A stretch of DNA of 32,000 nt from Vibrio mangrovi (GCF_024346955.1 NZ_AP024884.1:610230-642229), one strand, 5' to 3'. Positions 8,372 through 18,175 are shown, counted from the first letter of the stretch. Notes: generated from the sequence alone by a model not told the origin. Program-made: numbers and translations.

Positions 8372-9529
8372 ATGGATATAAAACTAAAATACCTGATTCC
8401 TTCACTACTTGTCGTTTCATCCGGGAGTATGGCTGCTTCCTACGCTGTTGAAGCCCGGGGAGATGCGATGGGAGGAACAGGGGTTGTTTCAGCCAATTAC
8501 CTTACTGCTCCTTTCTATAATCCTGCCATTGTTGCGATCTATCGTAGAAATGATGATGCGGGGATGATACTTCCCAGTTTTGGCCTGACCTATAATGATC
8601 CTGATGACATTTCTAATACAATTGATGACATTAGTGATTTAGTTAAGCAGGTTGAAGGCGGAGATCTTTCAAGAGTCGGAGAACTTCAGAGCCAGTTAGA
8701 TGCTTTAGATGGTGGCGAATTGAAAGCTGACATTGGTGGCGCTGTAGCGATAGGAATTCCCAATCAGTATATTGCGATGAACCTGTTTGGAAAAGCTTAT
8801 GCTGAAACCTACATTACACCATCGATCTCAACCGGTGGAGCAACAACGCTTGATAATGCTCAGAATAGTACAATTGATGCTGTTTCTGTAGCTGTCACGG
8901 AAGTTGGCCTTTCTTTGGCAAAATATCAGACATTCCTGGGGCAACACATTGCGATGGGGATATCTCCGAAGCTACAACGGGTTTATACATATGTATATGA
9001 GGCCAGCCTGCAGAATTATGATCTCAGCGATATTGATGCAAACAGTACCGGTGAAACAATCTTTAATATAGATGCTGGTTTTCTGTGGTTCTATGGCCCG
9101 CTCAGAGTTGGCTTTGCTGCAACGAATTTAGTTTCCCGGGATATTACGACAAAGCAGGTTGCTTCTAGTATTGCCGGTAAAGCAGACCTTCAGTATGACT
9201 ATCAATTAAGACCTCTATACACTGTTGGCGTCGGCTTGATTGGAGATTATGCATCCATCAGTGTTGACTATGATCTGAATGAAGAAGAACGTTACACTGG
9301 TTTCAATGATAATACGCAGATGCTCCGTGTCGGAGGAGAGATTGATATTCTGCGCCAACTTAAACTTCGGGCCGGCTACAAGAAAAATCTTGCTTATAGT
9401 AACTCAGACGGAACCTATACAGCAGGGATTGGACTTTCTCTCCTTGGCTTATTTGAGCTTGATGCTGCAGTGAGTTATACCAATACACATGCGAAAGGCG
9501 CTTATGTGAACTTTCTATCGACATACTAA
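8372..9529 (+). CDS. Outer-membrane beta-barrel protein, TraF-like (vxrD position)
   Basis: Signal peptide (LIPSLLVVSSGSMAAS), an alternating beta-strand pattern throughout, and a C-terminal aromatic residue (YVNFLSTY). The N-terminal GDAMGGTGV...YLTAPFYNPA resembles the TraF-type OMP family as I remember it. Confidence 0.6.
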   Translation: MDIKLKYLIPSLLVVSSGSMAASYAVEARGDAMGGTGVVSANYLTAPFYNPAIVAIYRRNDDAGMILPSFGLTYNDPDDISNTIDDISDLVKQVEGGDLSRVGELQSQLDALDGGELKADIGGAVAIGIPNQYIAMNLFGKAYAETYITPSISTGGATTLDNAQNSTIDAVSVAVTEVGLSLAKYQTFLGQHIAMGISPKLQRVYTYVYEASLQNYDLSDIDANSTGETIFNIDAGFLWFYGPLRVGFAATNLVSRDITTKQVASSIAGKADLQYDYQLRPLYTVGVGLIGDYASISVDYDLNEEERYTGFNDNTQMLRVGGEIDILRQLKLRAGYKKNLAYSNSDGTYTAGIGLSLLGLFELDAAVSYTNTHAKGAYVNFLSTY

Positions 9530-9595: not shown

Positions 9596-10076
9596 TTCTC
9601 ATAATTCTAATGCTTCTTATATCTGTATGACTACAGATAGTAATTACTCACTTAGTGAAGTTAATTTTCAATGGAAAATAACTTGATCCTTTTTCTGATA
9701 ATGTAGGTATATCGGTGGTAATTTAAAAATATTCATTATTTATCAGATAGTTGAGAAAGAATAATATGTTGCCCATGTGGTGAATACAACAAGGTATCAT
9801 GTCTTTATTATTTGAAGGATCTTAATGGATCTGTGGTTAGTGAATACTTCTGCTGTGTGATGCTGTCACACTAAAGTAATGCTATAATGCACTATAACTA
9901 ATAGCTGTTAAATAAAGAGACACGATATCTCAGTATGAAACCCTCAAATCCACTGAATCATTACCTATATATCTATACGAGAAGAGCATTCTCACATTTC
10001 TGTATCCTGTTGCTGTCGGATACAAACATATGGGCTAAGTTTCAATTGAGTGATTCTGAGTTCAGGTAAATAGCAT

Positions 10077-10397
10077 ATGAAGATTTTTATCGTGGTATTT
10101 ATATTGAGTGTCTGTGCTGGTAGCGTCTTTGCTAAAGGGATCTTATCTGATGCAGAAATAAGACAACAAATTATACGTGATTCAATCCGGCAGTATTCGG
10201 GCAATTGTGCCTGTCCATACAATAGAGCTTCAAATGGTTATAAATGTGGTAAAAGGAGCGCGTGGAGCCGTGCCGGTGGTTATTCTCCGATATGTTATGC
10301 CAGTGAGATCTCCGATGGTGATGTTAAAGAATGGAGAGCAGCACATAGTCAGCAGAAGTCTGGTGGAAAACAGCAAAATGCCATTCAGGATAAATAA
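10077..10397 (+). CDS. Small secreted cysteine-containing protein of unknown function
   Basis: 106 aa with signal peptide MKIFIVVFILSVCAGSVFA, then GNCACPYNRASNGYKCGKRSAWSRAGGYSPICY. It is the last chromosomal gene before the left attachment site. A long AT-rich leader lies upstream. Confidence 0.55.
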   Translation: MKIFIVVFILSVCAGSVFAKGILSDAEIRQQIIRDSIRQYSGNCACPYNRASNGYKCGKRSAWSRAGGYSPICYASEISDGDVKEWRAAHSQQKSGGKQQNAIQDK

Positions 10398-10491
10398 CGA
10401 TATACTGGGTCGGCAATAGTTTGAAATACCAAGTATTGCTAAACAGTTTTAAGGCTCAAAGTGGACATTACTAAATAGTTCTAACAAAACA

Positions 10492-10525
10492 AGTGCGCAT
10501 TATGTCACCCGTCATTATGTTGAGG
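10492..10525 (+). other. dif-like XerC/XerD site 1 (attL; attP1-type with 12-nt central region)
   Basis: AGTGCGCATTA-TGTCACCCGTCA-TTATGTTGAGG. The XerC arm is identical to the dif arm at 30664-30674. The inner 7 nt of the XerD arm are identical to dif and the outer 4 nt diverge. Confidence 0.75.
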
Positions 10526-10649
10526 GTTTGCCTTCAGGCCTGAGCGCGGCAAAGGGTGGGCGAGAGAGGTCATGATTCCGCGCCGAAGGCGGCTTGTCCG
10601 TCTGGCAGCGCGTGAAGGGGGCGAAAGAGAATCGCTTTGCAAGTGAAGC

Positions 10650-10678
10650 CCGTAACATAATGTCGAATAATGCGCATT
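10650..10678 (-). other. Inverted dif-like XerC/XerD site 2 (attP2-type with 7-nt central region)
   Basis: The reverse complement reads AATGCGCATTA-TTCGACA-TTATGTTACGG. It can pair with site 1 across a 124-nt GC-rich spacer (10526-10649), giving a forked hairpin with a bulged central region. Confidence 0.7.
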
Positions 10679-10744
10679 TTACTTAATTTTCAAAAAAGTA
10701 GAATTTATAATGCTTGCCTCATTAGTTGCATATGGTAAGTATTA

Positions 10745-11308
10745 ATGTATAAAAAACAATTTATTGACGCCTTTAACATCACTAAATCTTTAGGTTTTGA
10801 GACAGATTCTATTGATCTAAACGGGGCACTTCTTGACCAAAATACTCGAGCTAAGATTTATTCAACTATCCAAAATCAACTTGGTAAATTCAGTCCCGAA
10901 GAAGTATCTCAACAGTGCTTTGGGGCTACATACATCTTGAAGAATGAGTTAGAACAACTTTTAGATAAAAAGTTTTATTACACCTTGGGCTATATTGATT
11001 TAGAAGGAAAGTCAGTTTTCTATACTGACTTTGATGTTCTTAAAGGTTATATGGGACAACAGAATAAAACGTTTAGCCAGCCTATAAATCTTCATGCTTG
11101 GTTAACTACTACGGGTGGTGAAATTATTGACGCTACTTTGATGACTACTCTTAGTGTCGTTCGCAAGCAACCTGAGTTATTGGGCGGTGTAATTGCTTCC
11201 GTCAATGAATCACTTACTGATTTGAGTTACCATCCACAAATCATTGGCGAAGAATATCTTAAAGATTGTGGTTTCATGGTTGATTTCGAATTCTGGGAAT
11301 TTTCGTAA
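10745..11308 (+). CDS. Hypothetical protein; possible transglutaminase-like/papain-fold Cys-His-Asp enzyme
   Basis: 187-aa ORF with TATAAT-like and SD-like sequences upstream. The motif order QQC58FGATY ... LGY ... LH117AWL ... IID129AT has the spacing typical of the transglutaminase-like core (C, about 59 aa, HAW, 12 aa, D). This is pattern-based only. Confidence 0.5.
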   Translation: MYKKQFIDAFNITKSLGFETDSIDLNGALLDQNTRAKIYSTIQNQLGKFSPEEVSQQCFGATYILKNELEQLLDKKFYYTLGYIDLEGKSVFYTDFDVLKGYMGQQNKTFSQPINLHAWLTTTGGEIIDATLMTTLSVVRKQPELLGGVIASVNESLTDLSYHPQIIGEEYLKDCGFMVDFEFWEFS

Positions 11309-11671
11309 TCCAATTTTTTCATTCGTCGGTGCAGAATCTGACCCGGGATTATCCGGAATAAAGCGGAATAAACCGGAATCTTTGCCCTCGTTTTTTGGGC
11401 TATAAGCATTTAGCTTATAGTCCGAAGAATGAGGAGACAAGCCCCGGTGAAATCATTGCATCCCCTGCATGCAAAGGGCGCGTCAGTGGCATGCAACATG
11501 CCAGGCATTCGTCATTCCCAATCTTTCACAATCCCGATTTACAATATTCCCTTGACCAGATCGGCAATATTCCTAATCTTCGGCTTGGTTCGAAATCTGA
11601 CCCAAAGCGGATTGGATTGGATGCAGAATGGAGTGGTTTTGTATGGGGTGGTTTGCTGGCCGAACCGGAAG

Positions 11672-11695
11672 AAAATTGCAGATCTGCAATTTTTT
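11672..11695. terminator. Palindromic (potentially bidirectional) terminator-like hairpin in the ORF-poor stretch
   Basis: aaaattgca-gatc-tgcaatttt is a perfect 9-bp stem, with an A-run 5' and a T-run 3'. Confidence 0.45.
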
Positions 11696-12255
11696 AGTCT
11701 ACTGATCCTCCCAAGCCAGAAAATGGATCTTTTCTATTCGTCGTCCAGTTACTGGGTTAGGCTTTGACTTAAAAGGGTTTAATAGTAAGAAATAAAATCT
11801 TGCGATCCCTATTGTTTCATCTTTCATTTCATACTCTATCTGACCATACCGGAAGACCATTTACATTTCACATACCCCTTAAATGCTGATTATAGGAGCG
11901 AGGAAGTCCCACGAGTGGGACTGACTTTCACATGTGAAAGTTTTCAGCGCTGCAAAAATTTCGGTATGCCGAATTTTAAGTATTCTCAGATTTTTCAGTC
12001 TATCGGAAGCATTTTTCCCGAGGTTATCCGCACATGATTTGATTCCCTATGGTCATTTTCTATGGATAAAGCTCTCTTTATAGGAGATAGAAGTTCTAAA
12101 AACTCCGGCATTAGCTGAAATAGACTGTCTTAACGGCCTGTTCGGGCATAGGTATTCCTATTGGATACACCATCAAAATATTTCTGCTGATTTCCACCCT
12201 AATTCGGTTTTTCGAGCCCTTTCTCTTGAGTTTTTTAATTAAAGGAGATTCTTAT

Positions 12256-12345
12256 ATGAAGTTTGAACAAATGTTTATACGAATAATACTAGCTATTCGC
12301 TTATTTGAATTAGTCTTGAAATGGCTTGACTATTGGAATAGTTAA
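12256..12345 (+). CDS. Candidate 29-aa small hydrophobic/amphipathic peptide (below the track cutoff)
   Basis: AAAGGAG SD 8 nt upstream of the ATG. Translation is MKFEQMFIRIILAIRLFELVLKWLDYWNS. It is convergent with the 12466-13128 gene and ends at the shared hairpin 12354-12373. Confidence 0.3.
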   Translation: MKFEQMFIRIILAIRLFELVLKWLDYWNS

Positions 12346-12348
12346 GTG

Positions 12349-12373
12349 AAAAAGGGCACCTGTATAGGTGCCC
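12349..12373 (-). terminator. Rho-independent terminator of the 12466-13128 minus-strand gene
   Basis: Stem gggcacc / ggtgccc with loop tgtata. On the minus strand it is followed by TTTTT (the A-run at 12349-12353). Confidence 0.65.
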
Positions 12374-12465
12374 AATATAAAGACCTGTGCAAAATTGCAG
12401 TAACAACTTAATTCGGAATTGCTTGGAGACTTTTGTATCGGACTTTAAGCTAATATGGACTTTTA

Positions 12466-13128
12466 TCAAACACCTAGTTTGGGTATGGGGACTATGGTTT
12501 TAAATAAAGAACTGTAAGGTAATGTAGCCCATTCGTAATTTTTAACTAACCATCCGACAAGGAGTAAAAGGGCTATAAATAGTGCTGTCCCCATACTTTT
12601 TATGAAGAGATGGCGCAATTTTTCACCCCAGTCATATTTGGCCTTGATTCTGTTTTCTTCTGCAATAGCATGCAGTCTGGATGCTAATTGTTTATTATCA
12701 AGTTCCAATTCAGCTTCTTTGAACGCAAGCTTTCTTTCGTGTTCAGAGTTTAATCGCTCAAACTCATCAAATGTTGCTATAAATTTGCGTAGGGCATCAT
12801 CTAGATCGTCTTGAAGTTTATTGTATCCGTCAGGATCTCTTTTGTAATCAAAGACCGCATCATGGGTTCGTTTTCTTAGGTCTTTCAGAAATTCGATGTC
12901 TAAACCATCTAGTGACTTATTCAAATCATTGATTAGACGTGTTCTACGAAGCATTGAGTTCTGGTCAAAACTGGCTGTTGCTTTAATTTGATCCATAATA
13001 GGGTTGTGGGCGAGCTTGGCTACTTGTGCCACTACAGAATTTTTATAGGGATTTTCTGGCTGCTCAGCTAGAAGGCTTTCCATCTTCGGCAAAGATATGC
13101 CAGATGGGTGCTTTTCATCTTTATTCAT
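12466..13128 (-). CDS. Coiled-coil protein with a C-terminal transmembrane anchor, unknown function
   Basis: Preferred start is the internal ATG (MNKDEKH...) with a GGAAGG SD 5 nt upstream. The track start at 13164 lies inside the upstream terminator hairpin. The protein has a long charged helical region and a C-terminal TM helix, TALFIALLLLVGWLV. Confidence 0.6.
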   Translation of the reverse strand: MNKDEKHPSGISLPKMESLLAEQPENPYKNSVVAQVAKLAHNPIMDQIKATASFDQNSMLRRTRLINDLNKSLDGLDIEFLKDLRKRTHDAVFDYKRDPDGYNKLQDDLDDALRKFIATFDEFERLNSEHERKLAFKEAELELDNKQLASRLHAIAEENRIKAKYDWGEKLRHLFIKSMGTALFIALLLLVGWLVKNYEWATLPYSSLFKTIVPIPKLGV

Positions 13129-13186
13129 TTGACCTTCCGTTGGTGAAGAGTTAAAAAGCCGCATGCTTTAATAGCGGCTTATGGTT

Positions 13187-13504
13187 TCATTTTGATTGGT
13201 AAGCTTCTTTCATCTCTTTCATTACGAAGACAATTGCTGTGGCTTGTTTTTCATCGAATCCGGCATTGACTAGTCTGTTAATGTTGTGACGAATTTTTTC
13301 ATATTCTATCTTTACTTCTTGATCTGACAGGGACTTTTCTTTTAATGCCTCTAACGGGGATAGTTTTCTTAATGTCCAGGATCCGTCGTCGTTGTCTATC
13401 CATTGGATGACATCACTTTCTTCCCATTGTAATTCTTTTTGGATTTCATCAGGAATGAGGAAGTAGGACTCTCCATCTTCGTTTTTTTCTATTGTAACTT
13501 TCAT
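13187..13504 (-). CDS. AbrB/SpoVT/MazE-like small DNA-binding protein (copy 1)
   Basis: 105 aa. The N-terminus MKVTIEKNEDGESYFLIPDEIQKELQWEESDVIQWIDNDDGSWTLRK fits the swapped-hairpin AbrB-type pattern. It lies downstream of, and in an operon with, the XRE repressor. At the left-most copy only, a terminator hairpin (aagccgc / gcggctt) spans the duplication edge. Confidence 0.55.
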   Translation of the reverse strand: MKVTIEKNEDGESYFLIPDEIQKELQWEESDVIQWIDNDDGSWTLRKLSPLEALKEKSLSDQEVKIEYEKIRHNINRLVNAGFDEKQATAIVFVMKEMKEAYQSK

Positions 13505-13516
13505 GATAGACCTTGG

Positions 13517-14062
13517 TTACTTGGATTGTTCTTTTGACTTAATGATTTTTATTGTCTGAAGAGCTTCGCTTCCACTTAAACCAAATTCGTTCATCAGGGT
13601 GAATGCCGCTTCTTTTTCACTTTCGGTATCGTTAACTATTTGTTCTACTTTTTTCACTATTCTGTTGGTTTTTACAGCGTTTTCGCCAAACAGATCTCTT
13701 ATTTTACCTTCTTCTTGTAGTGTTTCTTCGGCCTCTTGAGATATCTGTTTCATTCTACTCTTCATTAAGAGGGCTTCGGATAGTTTTACTAATATCTCTT
13801 TTTCTTCGTCTCCCATTTGTCCGATGCTTGACATTAAGTATTGCTCGGCTTTGTCCTGACATTCGTAAGGTTCAGAAATTAGTTCATTGACCGTAACACA
13901 TAGATAGGATGCCAGTTGCTTTAATGTAGATACTTTGGGTTCACTTCGCCCTGTTTCGTACTCAATGAGAGTTCTTTTCGATACCCTGATTGCTTTAGCG
14001 ACATCTTCTTGTGTGAGTTCCATTTTTATTCGTGCTTGCTTGAGTTTTTCTGCAAATGACAT
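13517..14062 (-). CDS. XRE-family helix-turn-helix phage repressor (RstR analogue), copy 1
   Basis: The internal start MSFAEKLKQARIKMELTQEDVAKAIRVSKRTLIEYETGRSEPKVSTLKQLASYL is a canonical XRE HTH N-terminus. It is divergent from the replication gene. The longer 240-aa track ORF would overlap the rep start. Confidence 0.8.
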   Translation of the reverse strand: MSFAEKLKQARIKMELTQEDVAKAIRVSKRTLIEYETGRSEPKVSTLKQLASYLCVTVNELISEPYECQDKAEQYLMSSIGQMGDEEKEILVKLSEALLMKSRMKQISQEAEETLQEEGKIRDLFGENAVKTNRIVKKVEQIVNDTESEKEAAFTLMNEFGLSGSEALQTIKIIKSKEQSK

Positions 14063-14185
14063 CTCATTTGTCCCTATAAAGACATTTATTCTCACATTAT
14101 ATATGCAGTTTTTATCACCACACCCTTGAGGTGATGAAAAGATTACTTTATCATTGAGGAAAAATGCACTTGACAGGTTTTTGGA
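14063..14185. promoter_or_regulatory. Divergent repressor/replication control region (copy 1)
   Basis: 123-bp AT-rich spacer between divergent genes. It contains the inverted repeat atcacc...ggtgat (14114-14135) and TTGACA-like and TATA-like hexamers. Operators were not defined. Confidence 0.4.
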
Positions 14186-15763
14186 ATGTACGATTTTTTG
14201 GAAATCACGGTACCATTCAAGAGTGAGTTTGTGACTCAATCTCTTGGCTGTGGCTATGTGAATTACGAAAAGTTGTCTTCTTTATCCGGCCTGAAAGTTG
14301 GGGCAGGTGATATTGAATTTGGAGTTACGGGAAATAAGGATCTCCGGGATCTTTATATCCCTTGGCAAAAAATTCCTTCAAGTTATACCGATATTGCCTG
14401 TAAAGTTTTTGATGCGAACCCTGCCTGTAATTGTGAATGGGGATATCTTCGTTTTAAAGCATCGCCCGCCAAAATTATGCAGGGTCATAACGTTTATGGC
14501 TCTGACAATCTGCGTAATTGCGTTGAACATCTGATGTTTGCTTTTCTTAAAGCAACCCCGGACCTATTTGACTCACTTGAATGGGGATTAGCTGAACTTT
14601 CACGTATCGATGCTACTTATTCGATTCAGTTTGAGAGTCGGGATGTTTTGGCACAGGCGGTGAACGGTCTTCGAAACGTTTCCAATCGCTATCTTCGTCC
14701 ATCGAACCGCTACATTAACAAAACTTTGGGTGATGACTGTGATGCCAGTGTCTACTGGAGCGCTGCAACGGGCGAAAATCCGGATACAGGACGGACTAAG
14801 ACACTGCTGTTTTATGTTAAGGATGCAGAAATTAAGCATCAGTTAAGTCAGTTGCAATCTCGCGCAAAGAAAGAACGAACTCATCATTACGACCATATTA
14901 TTGCTGAACTCTCATCTCACGAACTACAAGATTTTGTTGCTAATCGGGGACGTTTTGAAGGGCGGGGGAAGAAGCGTTATATCCAGCGTGTCTGCGGCTC
15001 TTCTAATGTTTGGGCGGTTATTCGTTATGCTGAACAGTTTGAACAAATTAATGGCTACTCATTTTGTGAATACCTGTTTAAAGATCTTTTTGGGGATCTC
15101 TTTCTGGCTCTTGAGGGCAATGAGATAGAGGTATTTGACGATCACAAAGTAAAACATGCTTTATATGATATGTATCAGAGCATTACTCCAAAAGGCAACA
15201 TTTCCTACGCAAAGGCAGATCGTATATTCAGATTTTATATGTCTCTCTGCGACCGTGGTTACCACAACATCAAACGGCATACATCAAAGGCAACTCTATC
15301 GCGCAATATGAAAGAACTCTGCGCTATTGGCCTGTCCAAAGCCGATCTTCAGAACCTGCATAACGGTGAGCGCATGAAGTTATCTAAAGTCATCCATTTT
15401 GATTTTGACAATCAAAGGCCGGCGAACTACGTCGAACCCAAATCACCATTTGCCGATGGTTCATCAAATTATCTTGCTGAAATATTTGGGGTCTCTTATC
15501 GCTTATCCCATGACATGGGACTTACGGATAATCCGTCCGACTTTCTTCATGACACACTCAGATTACCGGATGATTTCGATTTTGAACCACTCTTGGATCT
15601 TAATGAGATCCCTATCAGCCCACGTGAATCTATGACTCTCGTTATTTGGCCGGATGGCGAAATAGCACTGACACGACACAGGCAGAAGAAATTTAAGCCT
15701 AACATCATTACCGGCCTGATCAACCCAGAACCGTCTCGTTACTATCAGGCTTATCTACATTGA
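14186..15763 (+). CDS. Filamentous-phage replication initiation protein (gene II / CRI / RstA-type rolling-circle nickase), copy 1
   Basis: 525 aa. The N-terminus MYDFLEITVPFKSEFV parallels f1 gene II MIDMLVLRLPFIDSLV. It is the first and largest gene of the rightward operon, divergent from the repressor. Confidence 0.75.
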   Translation: MYDFLEITVPFKSEFVTQSLGCGYVNYEKLSSLSGLKVGAGDIEFGVTGNKDLRDLYIPWQKIPSSYTDIACKVFDANPACNCEWGYLRFKASPAKIMQGHNVYGSDNLRNCVEHLMFAFLKATPDLFDSLEWGLAELSRIDATYSIQFESRDVLAQAVNGLRNVSNRYLRPSNRYINKTLGDDCDASVYWSAATGENPDTGRTKTLLFYVKDAEIKHQLSQLQSRAKKERTHHYDHIIAELSSHELQDFVANRGRFEGRGKKRYIQRVCGSSNVWAVIRYAEQFEQINGYSFCEYLFKDLFGDLFLALEGNEIEVFDDHKVKHALYDMYQSITPKGNISYAKADRIFRFYMSLCDRGYHNIKRHTSKATLSRNMKELCAIGLSKADLQNLHNGERMKLSKVIHFDFDNQRPANYVEPKSPFADGSSNYLAEIFGVSYRLSHDMGLTDNPSDFLHDTLRLPDDFDFEPLLDLNEIPISPRESMTLVIWPDGEIALTRHRQKKFKPNIITGLINPEPSRYYQAYLH

Positions 15764-15773
15764 GGTGAATTAC

Positions 15774-16079
15774 ATGCAAGTCTTTTTCATTAGTGCAACA
15801 CATCGCTTTGGTACATCGTTTAAAAAGAGCCCTCAGGGAGTTCAGTATGACATCTGCAATCTGGCCTATGGCGATCCTGTCGAACCGGTAAGTCAACCGA
15901 ATATGACCTTTTACGGTCATGGTGCTCAGGTCAGAGAAATTGGTCTGGCGAAAACGGCTATGTCGAGTTTTGAGACAGTGAAAGTCGGACAGCTTATTGA
16001 ACTCATTTTTACTCCGAATCCGGAAAATCCCCGGATGAATATTGTGTCCGGCTGGAAACCGGTGAAGCAGGAAGGTTAA
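15774..16079 (+). CDS. Putative ssDNA-binding protein (gene V / RstB positional analogue), copy 1
   Basis: About 101 aa, immediately after rep. The SD context ttGAGGTGaatta is the same 13-mer found before zot. Assigned by size and position only. Confidence 0.45.
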   Translation: MQVFFISATHRFGTSFKKSPQGVQYDICNLAYGDPVEPVSQPNMTFYGHGAQVREIGLAKTAMSSFETVKVGQLIELIFTPNPENPRMNIVSGWKPVKQEG

Positions 16080-16085
16080 TCCGGT

Positions 16086-16319
16086 ATGGCTTTATGTGTA
16101 GAGCAAGGAGAACAGGGATATTTGTACATCTCCGGCTCTGCCATCAACGAATGTTCATCGTTGGTTGTTTTGACCGTCGATGAATATAAAGCAAATACAG
16201 TTCAGCTAAATCCTTCAGAAATTTCTAGTCTGTTCTTCTTTGCTTTTGGTCTTGTCCTCGTCTCTTACAAAATATCCTGGGTCGTGGGCGTTATGAAAAA
16301 TCTCATTGGTAAAATATAG
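16086..16319 (+). CDS. Small membrane protein (putative minor coat/morphogenesis protein), copy 1
   Basis: 77 aa with a C-terminal hydrophobic helix LFFFAFGLVLVSYKISWVVGV. Its C-terminal tail NLIGKI resembles that of the major coat (RMIGKI). Confidence 0.5.
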   Translation: MALCVEQGEQGYLYISGSAINECSSLVVLTVDEYKANTVQLNPSEISSLFFFAFGLVLVSYKISWVVGVMKNLIGKI

Positions 16320-16327
16320 GTGGATTT

Positions 16328-16558
16328 ATGTTCATTCAAAAAATTAAAACTTTCTTGATGGCTTCTTTTGCTATGGCCATTACCGCGCCTGCATTTGCGG
16401 AGGATCCTGCAACTTCAAATCCCGTTCAGCAATTGATGGACTCCATTGATATTTCAGGAGTCAGTGCGATCGTTGTTTCCTTTGGCGTGCTTATTCTTGG
16501 TGTGAAGTTTGGTGAGAAAGGGATCGTCTTTGCAAAACGTATGATTGGTAAAATCTGA
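16328..16558 (+). CDS. Major coat protein (pVIII/Cep-like) precursor, copy 1
   Basis: 76 aa. Signal peptide MFIQKIKTFLMASFAMAITAPAFA, then a mature peptide of about 52 aa with an acidic N-terminus (EDPATS), a hydrophobic core (VSAIVVSFGVLILGV) and a basic C-terminus (KFGEKGIVFAKRMIGKI). Good AGGTGG SD. Confidence 0.85.
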   Translation: MFIQKIKTFLMASFAMAITAPAFAEDPATSNPVQQLMDSIDISGVSAIVVSFGVLILGVKFGEKGIVFAKRMIGKI

Positions 16559-16653
16559 TGTATGTTGCGGTTGCCTCCATTCAGTTTTATTGCGTCATTC
16601 TGTTTCTGGGGGGACTTTGTGGAATTGCCTGCGTTATAGGCTTCAGGGGGTAA
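16558..16653 (+). CDS. Candidate 31-aa hydrophobic protein (pVII/pIX-like minor coat candidate), copy 1; not in the track
   Basis: The ATG overlaps the coat stop (cTGATG). Translation is MYVAVASIQFYCVILFLGGLCGIACVIGFRG. It ends inside the terminator hairpin. Confidence 0.35.
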   Translation: MYVAVASIQFYCVILFLGGLCGIACVIGFRG

Positions 16654-16667
16654 CATACCCCTTTTTT
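16647..16667 (+). terminator. Short rho-independent terminator/attenuator after the coat gene, copy 1
   Basis: ggggta-aca-tacccc followed by T6. The placement after the major coat gene parallels the Ff phages. Confidence 0.55.
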
Positions 16668-16692
16668 ACTTGTTAAACAGAGGACTAATTAC

Positions 16693-18171
16693 ATGATATT
16701 GAAAAAGTTCTTCGTTTACTTTTTTATATTGAATATAGTCATTCTCCCTTTGAAAAAGGCCAATGCGGTTGTTCCTTTAGTTGTGGGTATTGGATATGCG
16801 GTTGATGTAGCTGCTCCTATTGCGATTCGCTATCTTGCATCTGATATTGCTATTAGTGCCGTTGCCAAAGCTGTACAGGTTTCCAACGCTTACTATTCAG
16901 CGACAGCCACAGCTTCTAACGCAAAGTTTCTGAAATATTTTAAGGGGAAGGCTGCATTAGGAGTTGCTGCATTTGTTGGGGTTCTTGATGCACTTGGTTT
17001 ATACCTGTCAAATGATAGCTTTTATTCCAAAGATGAGAGTTCTCAGGATCCCGGGGCAGCCCAACAAGGGTATTTCTGGAGCTCTCCGGATGGCCAACGT
17101 TCATCTGGTAGTGAAGTTGCTGATATTCGTATTTCAGACCTTAAAGAATCTCATCCAGATAATAATTACATCTATAGAATAGAATCCAGTTCTGACAACT
17201 CTATTCGTTATTATTTCTATCGGGTTGATACTGATACTCAAGGGAATGTTTCTGAAATTTATACCAGTGCCCGAACAGTATCTCGTCATGAATGTTCTTC
17301 GTCAAATGGGGTTGGTGTATCCAGTTGTTCTTCTGATTTTGATCCTAATTTTGGTTTAAAAGTCGAAGATTCTGATGTGCAGACTTCAGTTCTTGATTAT
17401 TTATCTTCTCTTGATGAGTCTAAACAGTTGGAATTTTTTGCTGATCCTGATGGTGTTCTAGATTCAGCTTTGGTTGAAGATCTGACGGTTGACGATGCTC
17501 CTCCAATGCTTGATGGTGAGAGTCCTATTCCCAATATTGGCGATCAGTCATGGTCTGATGCCCATATGATTACAACGGGTGTCGCTCAGTCTTCAGATTC
17601 CTCTGCTGCAAATTATGTCCCTCAGGATGATTGGGATAATGCCTATTATCTGGCAAATACTGTTGCTAATGGGAATGACTATATTACCGGATTGAATTCT
17701 GGTGCAGTTTCTATTCCTGATACAACAGGGACGACGCCTAATACCACAACTGGTGAGGGCAGTGTGAAAGTTGATCTTTCCAGTATTGAATCTCGTATTG
17801 ATACAACGAATTCCCTGAATCAGTCCATTCTTGAGGAATTTCAGAAGATCAATTCAACAACAACTCAGACTAAAAAGTCATTTGATGAGAGCAACCGTTA
17901 TTCGTTCTGGACTCCTATTTATCCTAATGGATTTGAAGGTGTGTTGAATGCTTTCATTGAAAAAATGAAACAGACTGATGCTTATCAGTTTCTGAGTGGA
18001 TTTACTTTGAATCTTTCATCTGGAGTCTATCCGGTGACTGAATTTTGCTTTACTGAACTTGGTTTTGGCTGCTTCGAGTTGAAGCTGGATGCGAATGTCT
18101 GGCTGGCAATTAAGTCGATGGTGATCCTTTTTTCTCTGGTAATGGCAAGACGTATTGTGTTTGGAGGTTAA
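16693..18171 (+). CDS. Minor coat adsorption protein (pIII/OrfU-like), copy 1
   Basis: 492 aa. N-terminal signal sequence MILKKFFVYFFILNIVILPLKKANA, Ser/Thr/Asp/Gly-rich linkers, and a C-terminal membrane anchor VWLAIKSMVILFSLVMARRIVFGG. It lies between the coat and pVI-like genes. Confidence 0.75.
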   Translation: MILKKFFVYFFILNIVILPLKKANAVVPLVVGIGYAVDVAAPIAIRYLASDIAISAVAKAVQVSNAYYSATATASNAKFLKYFKGKAALGVAAFVGVLDALGLYLSNDSFYSKDESSQDPGAAQQGYFWSSPDGQRSSGSEVADIRISDLKESHPDNNYIYRIESSSDNSIRYYFYRVDTDTQGNVSEIYTSARTVSRHECSSSNGVGVSSCSSDFDPNFGLKVEDSDVQTSVLDYLSSLDESKQLEFFADPDGVLDSALVEDLTVDDAPPMLDGESPIPNIGDQSWSDAHMITTGVAQSSDSSAANYVPQDDWDNAYYLANTVANGNDYITGLNSGAVSIPDTTGTTPNTTTGEGSVKVDLSSIESRIDTTNSLNQSILEEFQKINSTTTQTKKSFDESNRYSFWTPIYPNGFEGVLNAFIEKMKQTDAYQFLSGFTLNLSSGVYPVTEFCFTELGFGCFELKLDANVWLAIKSMVILFSLVMARRIVFGG

Positions 18172-18175
18172 TCCT

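Follow-up and report, generated by a model that had tools for sequence, protein, structure and literature searches.

A probable CTX-type attachment region at the left border of a previously undescribed filamentous prophage at the chromosome 2 dif site of Vibrio mangrovi

How does a filamentous prophage come to lie at the dif site of a chromosome with two inverted dif-like sites, 124 nt apart, at its left border and one perfect dif at its right? We consider this question for a 32,000-nt stretch of Vibrio mangrovi chromosome 2 (NZ_AP024884.1:610230-642229), referred to as the window, to which all positions refer. We suggest, with a probability of roughly 0.85, that positions 10492-10678 are the attachment region of an 11,432-nt filamentous phage that integrates at the chromosome 2 dif through XerC and XerD, recombinases of the host (XerCD), that is, an IMEX (a mobile element that integrates by exploiting Xer) of the CTX type. 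The mechanism that we propose is borrowed from CTXphi, for which it has been known since 2005, while the phage has not been described before: a literature search on the assembly accession and on V. mangrovi phages returned no description of the prophage, and the hairpin formed by the two sites goes unmentioned in the Vibrio inovirus surveys examined. The sites at the two borders are as follows.

10492..10502, plus strand: XerC arm of site 1 (attP1-like), AGTGCGCATTA, the same as the XerC arm of dif at 30664-30674
10503..10514, plus strand: centre of site 1, TGTCACCCGTCA, 12 nt, its opening 3 nt (TGT) being the opening 3 nt of the dif centre
10515..10525, plus strand: XerD arm of site 1, TTATGTTGAGG, the same as the XerD arm of CTXphi attP1
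10526..10649, plus strand: spacer, 124 nt, GC-rich, folding as a "fork"; a module common to many Vibrio inoviruses
10650..10678, minus strand: site 2 (attP2-like), read on the minus strand as AATGCGCATTA-TTCGACA-TTATGTTACGG, with a 7-nt centre
30664..30691, plus strand: regenerated canonical dif, 28 bp and perfect, AGTGCGCATTA-TGTACG-TTATGTTAAAT

An initial annotation of the window had the sequences of both sites, their 12- and 7-nt centres and the 124-nt GC-rich spacer correct to the base. The pattern GCGCATTA-N5-12-TTATGTT has three matches in the window (site 1, site 2 and dif) and none in 100 shuffles, so the three-site pattern is not due to chance. A search of the 32-kb window with the full dif pattern, allowing up to 3 mismatches, found no dif-like site other than the one at 30664. 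The spacer has a GC content of 0.56-0.61, compared with 0.26-0.45 in the flanks. The dif at 30664-30691 is identical to the chromosome 2 dif of V. brasiliensis, and the flanking genes, pntAB and the vxrABCD(E) operon on the left and an iron-type alcohol dehydrogenase (Fe-ADH) gene on the right, are those of the chromosome 2 dif region of a Vibrio.

A BLAST search of 10480-10700 against phage records matched the CTXphi ig-1/attP region through both sites and, through the spacer, VAI1/VAI2, V5, FR1 and a V. cyclitrophicus prophage. CTXphi in NC_015209 reads AGTGCGCATTA-TGTGGCGCGGCA-TTATGTTGAGG, followed by 89 nt and the reverse complement of AATGCGTATTA-TACGCCA-TTATGTTACGG. These are the published attP1 and attP2, with 12-bp and 5-7-bp centres and a spacer of ~90 bp (PMC3089051, PMC4246890), which form the forked hairpin of attP(+) (Val et al. 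2005; Das et al. 2010; as reviewed in PMC3089051, PMC4246890). The initial annotation had likened the geometry to that of CTXphi, and the centres and XerD arms in V. mangrovi do equal those of attP1 and attP2; the spacers differ, at 124 nt versus about 90 nt in CTXphi. Its proposal that the sites pair on the plus strand is likewise borne out by folding. As single-stranded DNA (ssDNA), the plus strand pairs site 1 with site 2 at a minimum free energy of -39.2 to -39.4 kcal/mol (z = -2.9 to -3.2; 0/200 shuffles fold equally well), and the CTXphi hairpin, folded alike, gives -39.0 kcal/mol and the same topology. In the predicted structure, an XerC-arm stem (10 Watson-Crick pairs and one G.T) is followed by a centre that is bulged and in part paired, then by 10 bp of XerD-arm stem, and the spacer branches. 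The minus strand folds more weakly by 5.6 kcal/mol, as would be expected if the G.T pairs of the plus strand become A.C. On the hairpin strand (+) lie also pII, the coat genes, zot and an M13-like nick motif, an orientation that identifies the plus strand as the packaged strand, as the initial annotation had assumed.

The arrangement of the two borders points in the same direction. Published CTXphi integration yields one new dif and two non-functional sites, with both attP sites at the left (PMC3089051). The same layout, both sites left and dif rebuilt right, had been derived for the window in the initial annotation and is present in three assemblies: the window itself and two further V. mangrovi assemblies found by exact-protein look-up, in which the phage DNA is 100% identical. 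The XerC-side homology that had been proposed is there as well; TGT (10503-10505), next to the XerC arm of site 1, matches the start of the dif centre TGTACG (30675-30680) and can pair with a target dif. One assembly, GCA_900184095.1, reads vxrE-hairpin-A-B-tail-dif-ADH, where A and B are the two phage segments listed below, and its single B sets the phage unit at 11,432 bp. The other, GCA_033542575.1, holds a complete tandem, with an internal junction that reads ...CAGTCTTTTTTTTAAATTCCTCAT-AGTGCGCATTA-TGTCACCCGTCA-TTATGTTGAGG..., i.e., tail TTTAAATTCCTCAT, XerC arm and attP1 centre, and a rightmost junction that ends TGTACG-TTATGTTAAAT. Judged by their sequence, these junctions are as expected from successive CTX-type integrations into the regenerated dif. 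The initial annotation erred in treating the hairpin-to-dif interval of the window (~20 kb) as one phage genome, since the interval consists of one 11,432-nt phage and an extra 8,740-bp copy that lacks attP.

Sequencing reads and related genomes bear on the borders themselves. Among the Logan contigs of run ERR1893544, one stops at window position 10521 and one starts at 30648. Both ends lie exactly k-1 = 30 nt into sequence common to two paths, which places the branch points at 10491|10492 and 30677|30678, the predicted borders. The branching also shows that the tail|attP1 junction is present in the reads, and that tandem or circular phage accompanied the integrated copy in the culture, in contrast to the one copy in the NCBI draft GCA_900184095.1. 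Vibrio sp. MEBiC08052, the closest species representative (VxrD 91% identical), has a single dif, AGTACGCATTA-TATACG-TTATGTTAAAT, in its vxr-ADH interval, with no hairpin and with the ADH gene ~110 nt past dif. One dif each, 1-1.5 kb after vxrD, is found in ~15 further Vibrio species, and none of the chromosomal dif-region loci of other Vibrio that were searched (L006-L036) carries the hairpin. The empty site foreseen in the initial annotation is supported to this extent, by a single dif without the hairpin and by contig breaks at the predicted borders.

By analogy with CTXphi, integration would begin on the packaged (+) single strand, where site 1 would anneal with site 2 to leave a mismatched and bulged centre, 12 nt opposite 7 nt, and the spacer as the fork. 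Host XerC, as the sole catalyst, would cut after AGTGCGCATTA on the site-1 strand and trade it for the top strand of dif, an exchange that the TGT after the cut could stabilize by pairing with dif, and the resulting pseudo-Holliday junction would be resolved by replication. In this scheme, the XerC arm of site 1 (10492..10502) would be the chromosomal dif arm after the XerC exchange, and the dif at 30664-30691 would be a composite of a phage-derived XerC arm, AGTGCGCATTA, and the chromosomal centre TGTACG and XerD arm TTATGTTAAAT. Integration would be irreversible in the duplex form, such that the hairpin in the window would be a fixed scar, and new virions would arise by rolling-circle replication from one origin, over the internal junction, to a second origin.

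An exact scan of IMG/VR for TTATGTTGAG-N100-130-CCGTAACATAA matched 42 contigs, mostly inoviruses of 6-14 kb, which make up the hairpin family considered here. In all ~40 distinct hairpins, the site-1 centre is long (9-12 nt) and the site-2 centre short (6-8 nt), and some have XerC arms fitted to other hosts (...CCCATAA). At the three centre positions that adjoin the XerD arm, the two sites are complementary in 36/40, 31/40 and 32/40 hairpins, compared with ~18, 16 and 20 of 40 in shuffles, and 0/2000 shuffles reached the observed values, although the 40 hairpins are related sequences. The covarying positions include AT, TA, GC, CG and GT pairs, while positions 4-5 are mostly mismatched. Given that the centre nucleotides by the XerD arm are free of recombinase-binding constraint and yet covary, selection for the bulged intrastrand duplex is indicated. 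The spacer, too, is conserved, with homologues in V5, VAI2, PE003B and about 30 IMG/VR contigs (85% identity in L092). Two of its blocks, AAAGGGTGGGCGAGAGA and GAGAATCGCTTTG, hardly vary among about 30 phages, in which the genes have diverged far more, and RNAalifold on the family spacers shows conserved internal stems with compensatory changes.

Between the hairpin and the dif, the window contains the following features.

10679-13166: the phage-specific segment A, with orf187, ~1.15 kb without a convincing open reading frame (ORF), and orf232; the window has this segment and the hairpin a single time
10745..11308, plus strand: orf187, a cargo gene 67 nt past the hairpin, with a putative papain-like fold that is not like a helix-turn-helix (HTH) protein or a Xer activation factor (Xaf)
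12466..13164, minus strand: orf232, within segment A, encoding a coiled coil and a C-terminal transmembrane segment, of no known family
13156..13180, plus strand: (+)-strand origin hairpin, AAGCCGC-atgctttaata-GCGGCTT, loop ATGCTTTAATA
13170..21909, plus strand: copy 1 of unit B, the 8,740-bp core phage unit
21900..21919, plus strand: junction of copies 1 and 2, CAGTCTTTTT^AATAGCGGCT, with the terminator T-run joined to the 5' side of the origin nick
21910..30649, plus strand: copy 2 of unit B, 100% identical to copy 1, without attP hairpin and without segment A
30632..30663, plus strand: terminator (GGACTGA..TCAGTC and T8) after the immunity gene, then the 14-nt tail TTTAAATTCCTCAT before the phage XerC arm

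According to Pfam and PHROGs, unit B encodes orf105 and an XRE repressor on the minus strand, then pII (PF05144/PF05155, with E-values of 9e-50 and 5e-25), an RstB-like ssDNA-binding protein, coat proteins, pIII-like and pVI-like proteins, Zot, orf117, and an S-type pyocin-like DNase with its immunity protein. A search of unit B for dif-like sites found none. The origin hairpin shares its stem and 11-nt loop design with its M13 counterpart, GAGTCCAC-gttctttaata-GTGGACTC. The M13 pII nick falls between 5780T and 5781A, CTTT^AATAG (PMC5405960; PMC11765958), and the nick by the pII of the V. mangrovi phage is predicted, by analogy, at 13169^13170 (CTTT^AATAG). At least 20 related inovirus contigs from IMG/VR have the same 11-nt loop, on covarying stems, upstream of pII; the loop recurs in V. 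fluvialis, and, in the pII relatives that were compared (L037-L039), the origin hairpin is on the strand of pII.

This origin also marks the boundary of the extra copy. The stretches 13167-21909 and 21907-30649, offset by 8,740 bp, have the same sequence, and copy 2 begins exactly at AATAG. Just upstream of it stands ...CAGTCTTTTT, the T-run from the terminator that follows the immunity gene; in the intact phage, this T-run runs on into TTTAAATTCCTCAT-AGTGCGCATTA. The hybrid junction is without the left arm of the origin hairpin. Copy 2 most likely stems from illegitimate joining associated with pII and rolling-circle replication, in which a 3' end in the T-run would be ligated to the pII-bound 5' end at the origin nick. 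Such joining could have deleted 2,692 bp (tail-attP-A) from a tandem dimer of the GCA_033542575.1 type, or could have produced an attP-less circle of 8,740 nt, which then re-entered the prophage by recombination. Rolling-circle synthesis that started at the first origin and stopped at the hybrid one would give attP-less 8.74-kb circles only. Michel and Ehrlich reportedly described pII-mediated illegitimate recombination at the M13 origin nick in 1986. Two other origins of the arrangement were considered and rejected. Two sequential Xer integrations would not explain it, as no dif-like site bounds the 8,740-bp unit (up to 3 mismatches, and arm-only searches). Nor is segment A (10492-13166 plus the tail) a satellite IMEX that was invaded by an attP-less phage B, since the junction of A with copy 1 is a complete M13-type origin hairpin, with one arm on each side, and hairpin, A and B form one 11,432-bp unit in two other assemblies.

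The bacteriocin-immunity cargo at 20348-21897 (copy 2: 29088-30637) consists of an HNH DNase gene (PF06958 and PF21431) and an overlapping Im-type immunity gene (PF01320), a pair encoded in none of the other ~110 loci compared (about 70 of these being inovirus contigs or records). L095, L109 and V. fluvialis L119 each have an orf187 homologue (68-70% identity) immediately 3' of a CTX-type hairpin. Another in this identity range, in L039, lies just upstream of the origin hairpin on a contig whose start allows no attP to be seen, and one with 73% identity is found in V. parahaemolyticus islands without dif-like sites, near HetE-N and PIN-TPR-GreABC genes. The AlphaFold2 model of the protein is confident (pLDDT 88.7), its best PDB match is 2hly (unknown function), and it has weak SseI/glutaminase/transglutaminase-like matches; the conserved C58, H117 and D129 suggest a papain-like enzyme. 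Because orf187 adjoins attP, as Xaf genes do, it was considered as a Xer activation factor; this idea is not supported, given a model that is not HTH-like, similarity that is weakly papain/transglutaminase-like, and homologues away from dif. For orf232, annotators call a shorter 220-aa form than the one that starts with the ATG at 13164, and no homologue was found by tblastn in the other loci or in the viral contig search. PADLOC had no match for six cargo proteins. No integrase or DUF3653-like domain was found by Pfam in the 10 larger phage ORFs or by PHROGs in 10 ORFs (7 shared), a screen for recombinases and Xaf proteins that covered ORFs of at least 60 aa, took in the pVI-like ORF with PHROGs only, and gave no match in any library, Pfam and PHROGs included, for orf187 and orf232.

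Within segment A, 11309-12465 (~1.15 kb) shows no convincing ORF and no Rfam match, and may consist of decayed genes or an unrecognised element; Rfam yielded no credible family over 9900-22100. In a megablast search against phage records, segment A matched nothing and unit B matched through one element of 55-61 nt only. This 61-nt stretch in the zot-orf117 intergenic region, 19717-19777 (and 28457-28517), is 95-98% identical to V. cyclitrophicus inoviruses PQ189297-PQ189303, which otherwise have no DNA similarity to the V. mangrovi phage. It forms a long imperfect hairpin and is a candidate packaging signal or (-) origin.

At the same chromosome 2 dif locus, two other Vibrio species carry IMEXs of their own. 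In V. renipiscarius L028, two long-centre attP1-like sites (13071-13103 and 17032-17064) lie 4 kb apart. The V. fluvialis L119 locus (8538-8693) has a 12-nt/6-nt inverted pair around an unrelated 94-nt spacer, followed by the orf187 homologue and an M13-like origin hairpin. A gene for a 321-aa tyrosine recombinase (PF00589; L068 12651-13616) adjoins ddl ~2.3 kb to the right of dif in V. mangrovi, outside the prophage borders and ~1 kb past the right end of the window.

Could the two sites have arisen without any role for the hairpin, as remnants of duplex XerCD integrations of the VGJphi or TLCphi type? They would then be hybrid attL sites of successive IMEXs, or an attL and a decayed inverted remnant. 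Vibrio dif loci often hold IMEX arrays bounded by dif-like sites (PMC12715192), and the two long-centre sites of V. renipiscarius L028 could be cited in favor of such a history. However, the V. mangrovi sites are inverted and 124 nt apart, with no room for an element between them, and the inverted pair with a homologous spacer recurs in free or circular phage genomes (V5, VAI1/2) and in the tandem internal junction, which indicates that the pair belongs to the phage. A 12-bp centre is unfit for duplex Xer recombination (PMC4246890), site 2 is intact and not split by a crossover, no Xaf-like gene was found in the scanned ORFs, and the covariation of the centres indicates selection for intrastrand pairing. 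We consider a duplex origin highly improbable. Only slightly better odds can be given to the possibility that the spacer and stem are chiefly another cis element of the ssDNA, such as the (-)-strand origin or the packaging signal, that the arms serve mainly as its stem, and that integration is secondary or lost. The intergenic region of Ff phages houses the (-) origin and the packaging signal, both of them hairpins of the ssDNA, and the near invariance of the spacer blocks among phages with diverged genes would suit such an element. Against this stands a phage that is integrated at dif with the exact CTX-type product. In addition, the arms and the centre asymmetry recur in CTXphi and V. fluvialis L119, whose spacers are unrelated, which argues that the arms are under a common constraint. 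Integration and a cis-element role are also not mutually exclusive, and a second role for the spacer would be compatible with a CTX-type attachment region.

Several points do weigh against a CTX-type attachment region, or against the history that we propose for the extra copy. XerC and XerD binding, cleavage and ssDNA integration are proposed for this locus by analogy with CTXphi. Because phage and dif have the same XerC arm, the crossover is placed to within 14 nt (10492-10505). The empty site is known from another species, in which the intergenic DNA is too diverged for base-by-base alignment. The z-scores of the fold are moderate (about -3), and the inverted repeat folds on the minus strand as well. 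At the joint between the copies there is a 3-nt TTT microhomology, and five Ts of an 8-T run precede the joint, a sequence that mimics CTTT^A only loosely; a microhomology event independent of pII could also have generated the duplication. Finally, the extra 8,740-bp copy (21910-30649) might not be chromosomal but an assembly artefact from abundant circular or tandem phage DNA, which is unlikely in our view. The two copies are 100% identical, other assemblies have a single copy or a full tandem, and at the phage borders the Logan graph of ERR1893544 splits, indicating several junction types in one culture. But a collapsed or expanded repeat would normally give tail/attP1, whereas the B/B junction CAGTCTTTTT|AATAGCGG is in neither regular arrangement, and some sequenced molecule must thus have carried the joint. 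Its coincidence with the origin nick likewise speaks for a biological origin.

A more speculative extension, which we hold to be doubtful, is that the attP module is more than an integration site and that copy 2 lost it by no mere chance. The spacer, with blocks that scarcely change among dozens of otherwise diverged Vibrio inoviruses, could double as a (-)-strand origin or a recombinase-accessory site, and pII could use the T-run as an alternative terminus, thereby dropping the attP-A segment and toggling the phage between an integrative 11.4-kb form and a replicative, bacteriocin-carrying 8.74-kb form.

If the CTX-type reading is correct, the ssDNA attP(+) mechanism is not confined to CTXphi, RS1, Ypf and CUS-1 but is a portable module, which would also serve an Ff-like inovirus (pII and M13-type origin) of an environmental and non-pathogenic Vibrio and about 40 further viral contigs. 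A recent survey of Vibrio inovirus borders treated attP as a 28-bp duplex motif (PMC12715192). Recognition of the inverted pair would give exact prophage borders and predict irreversibility. The locus may also illustrate how, in nature, a rearrangement with its anchor at a rolling-circle nick can deprive a prophage copy of the integration module, and it shows a DNase bacteriocin/immunity pair aboard a filamentous phage. What is added here is the attP module on a replicon of the Ff type, the asymmetry and covariation of the centres throughout the family, and a module loss that is anchored at the nick; the mechanism itself is unchanged.

Along with the IMEXs of the VGJphi and TLCphi type, the V. 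mangrovi phage belongs to the filamentous or satellite phages that target dif with borrowed XerCD. In the VGJ type, a fully paired attP recombines with dif and leaves a hybrid site at each end. The VGJphi-type and TLCphi-type elements have a single double-stranded attP, integrate reversibly and carry a XafV or XafT gene beside attP (bioRxiv 10.64898/2026.06.12.731946; PMC4246890). The V. mangrovi phage, by contrast, lacks the single-duplex-attP architecture, neither of its sites is split between the prophage ends, its right end is a canonical dif, and no Xaf gene was found among the ORFs scanned. The 11-nt loop ...CTTT^AATA is common to it and the Ff phages (M13/f1/fd), as are the Pfam families of pII. 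Its duplication resembles the illegitimate recombination reported for Ff, with one end exactly at the nick and the other at a T-rich sequence that resembles the 5' side of the nick; unlike the Ff case, the event occurred in a chromosomal prophage array and strips the integration module, and the part played by pII is inferred.

The environmental Vibrio inoviruses (V5, OL512807; VAI1/VAI2, MN200777-8; vB_VpI_FR1; 10N.286.52.F6_PE003B; and ~40 IMG/VR contigs) share with the V. mangrovi phage a spacer that is 70-85% identical, the same XerD arms and the long/short asymmetry of the centres, and several of them also have orf187 and an M13-like origin hairpin directly after the module. In most of them, the centres measure 9-11 and 6-8 nt and the spacer 98-115 nt, and the 12/7 combination is found in this sample in CTXphi and the V. 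mangrovi phage only; the V. mangrovi spacer has an extra insertion of ~20 nt, in common with L092. With CTXphi, the phage shares the inverted dif-like pair with 12/7-nt centres on the (+) strand, identical XerD arms (TTATGTTGAGG and TTATGTTACGG), near-identical XerC arms followed by TGT, and a forked fold of near-identical predicted energy. It also shares the order of hairpin, repressor (-), then replication and structural genes on the hairpin strand, and a prophage with both sites left and a regenerated dif right, for which tandem arrays are known. Several features set it apart from CTXphi: a spacer of 124 nt, not about 90 nt, with a sequence unrelated to that of CTXphi; a genome of 11.4 kb, where that of CTXphi has 6.9 kb; an Ff-type pII (Phage_CRI/G2P) that replaces RstA for replication and goes with an M13-like nick hairpin; and a cargo that comprises orf187, orf232, a pyocin-like DNase and the matching immunity protein, and not ctxAB. 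Its host is V. mangrovi, and its target is the dif of chromosome 2.

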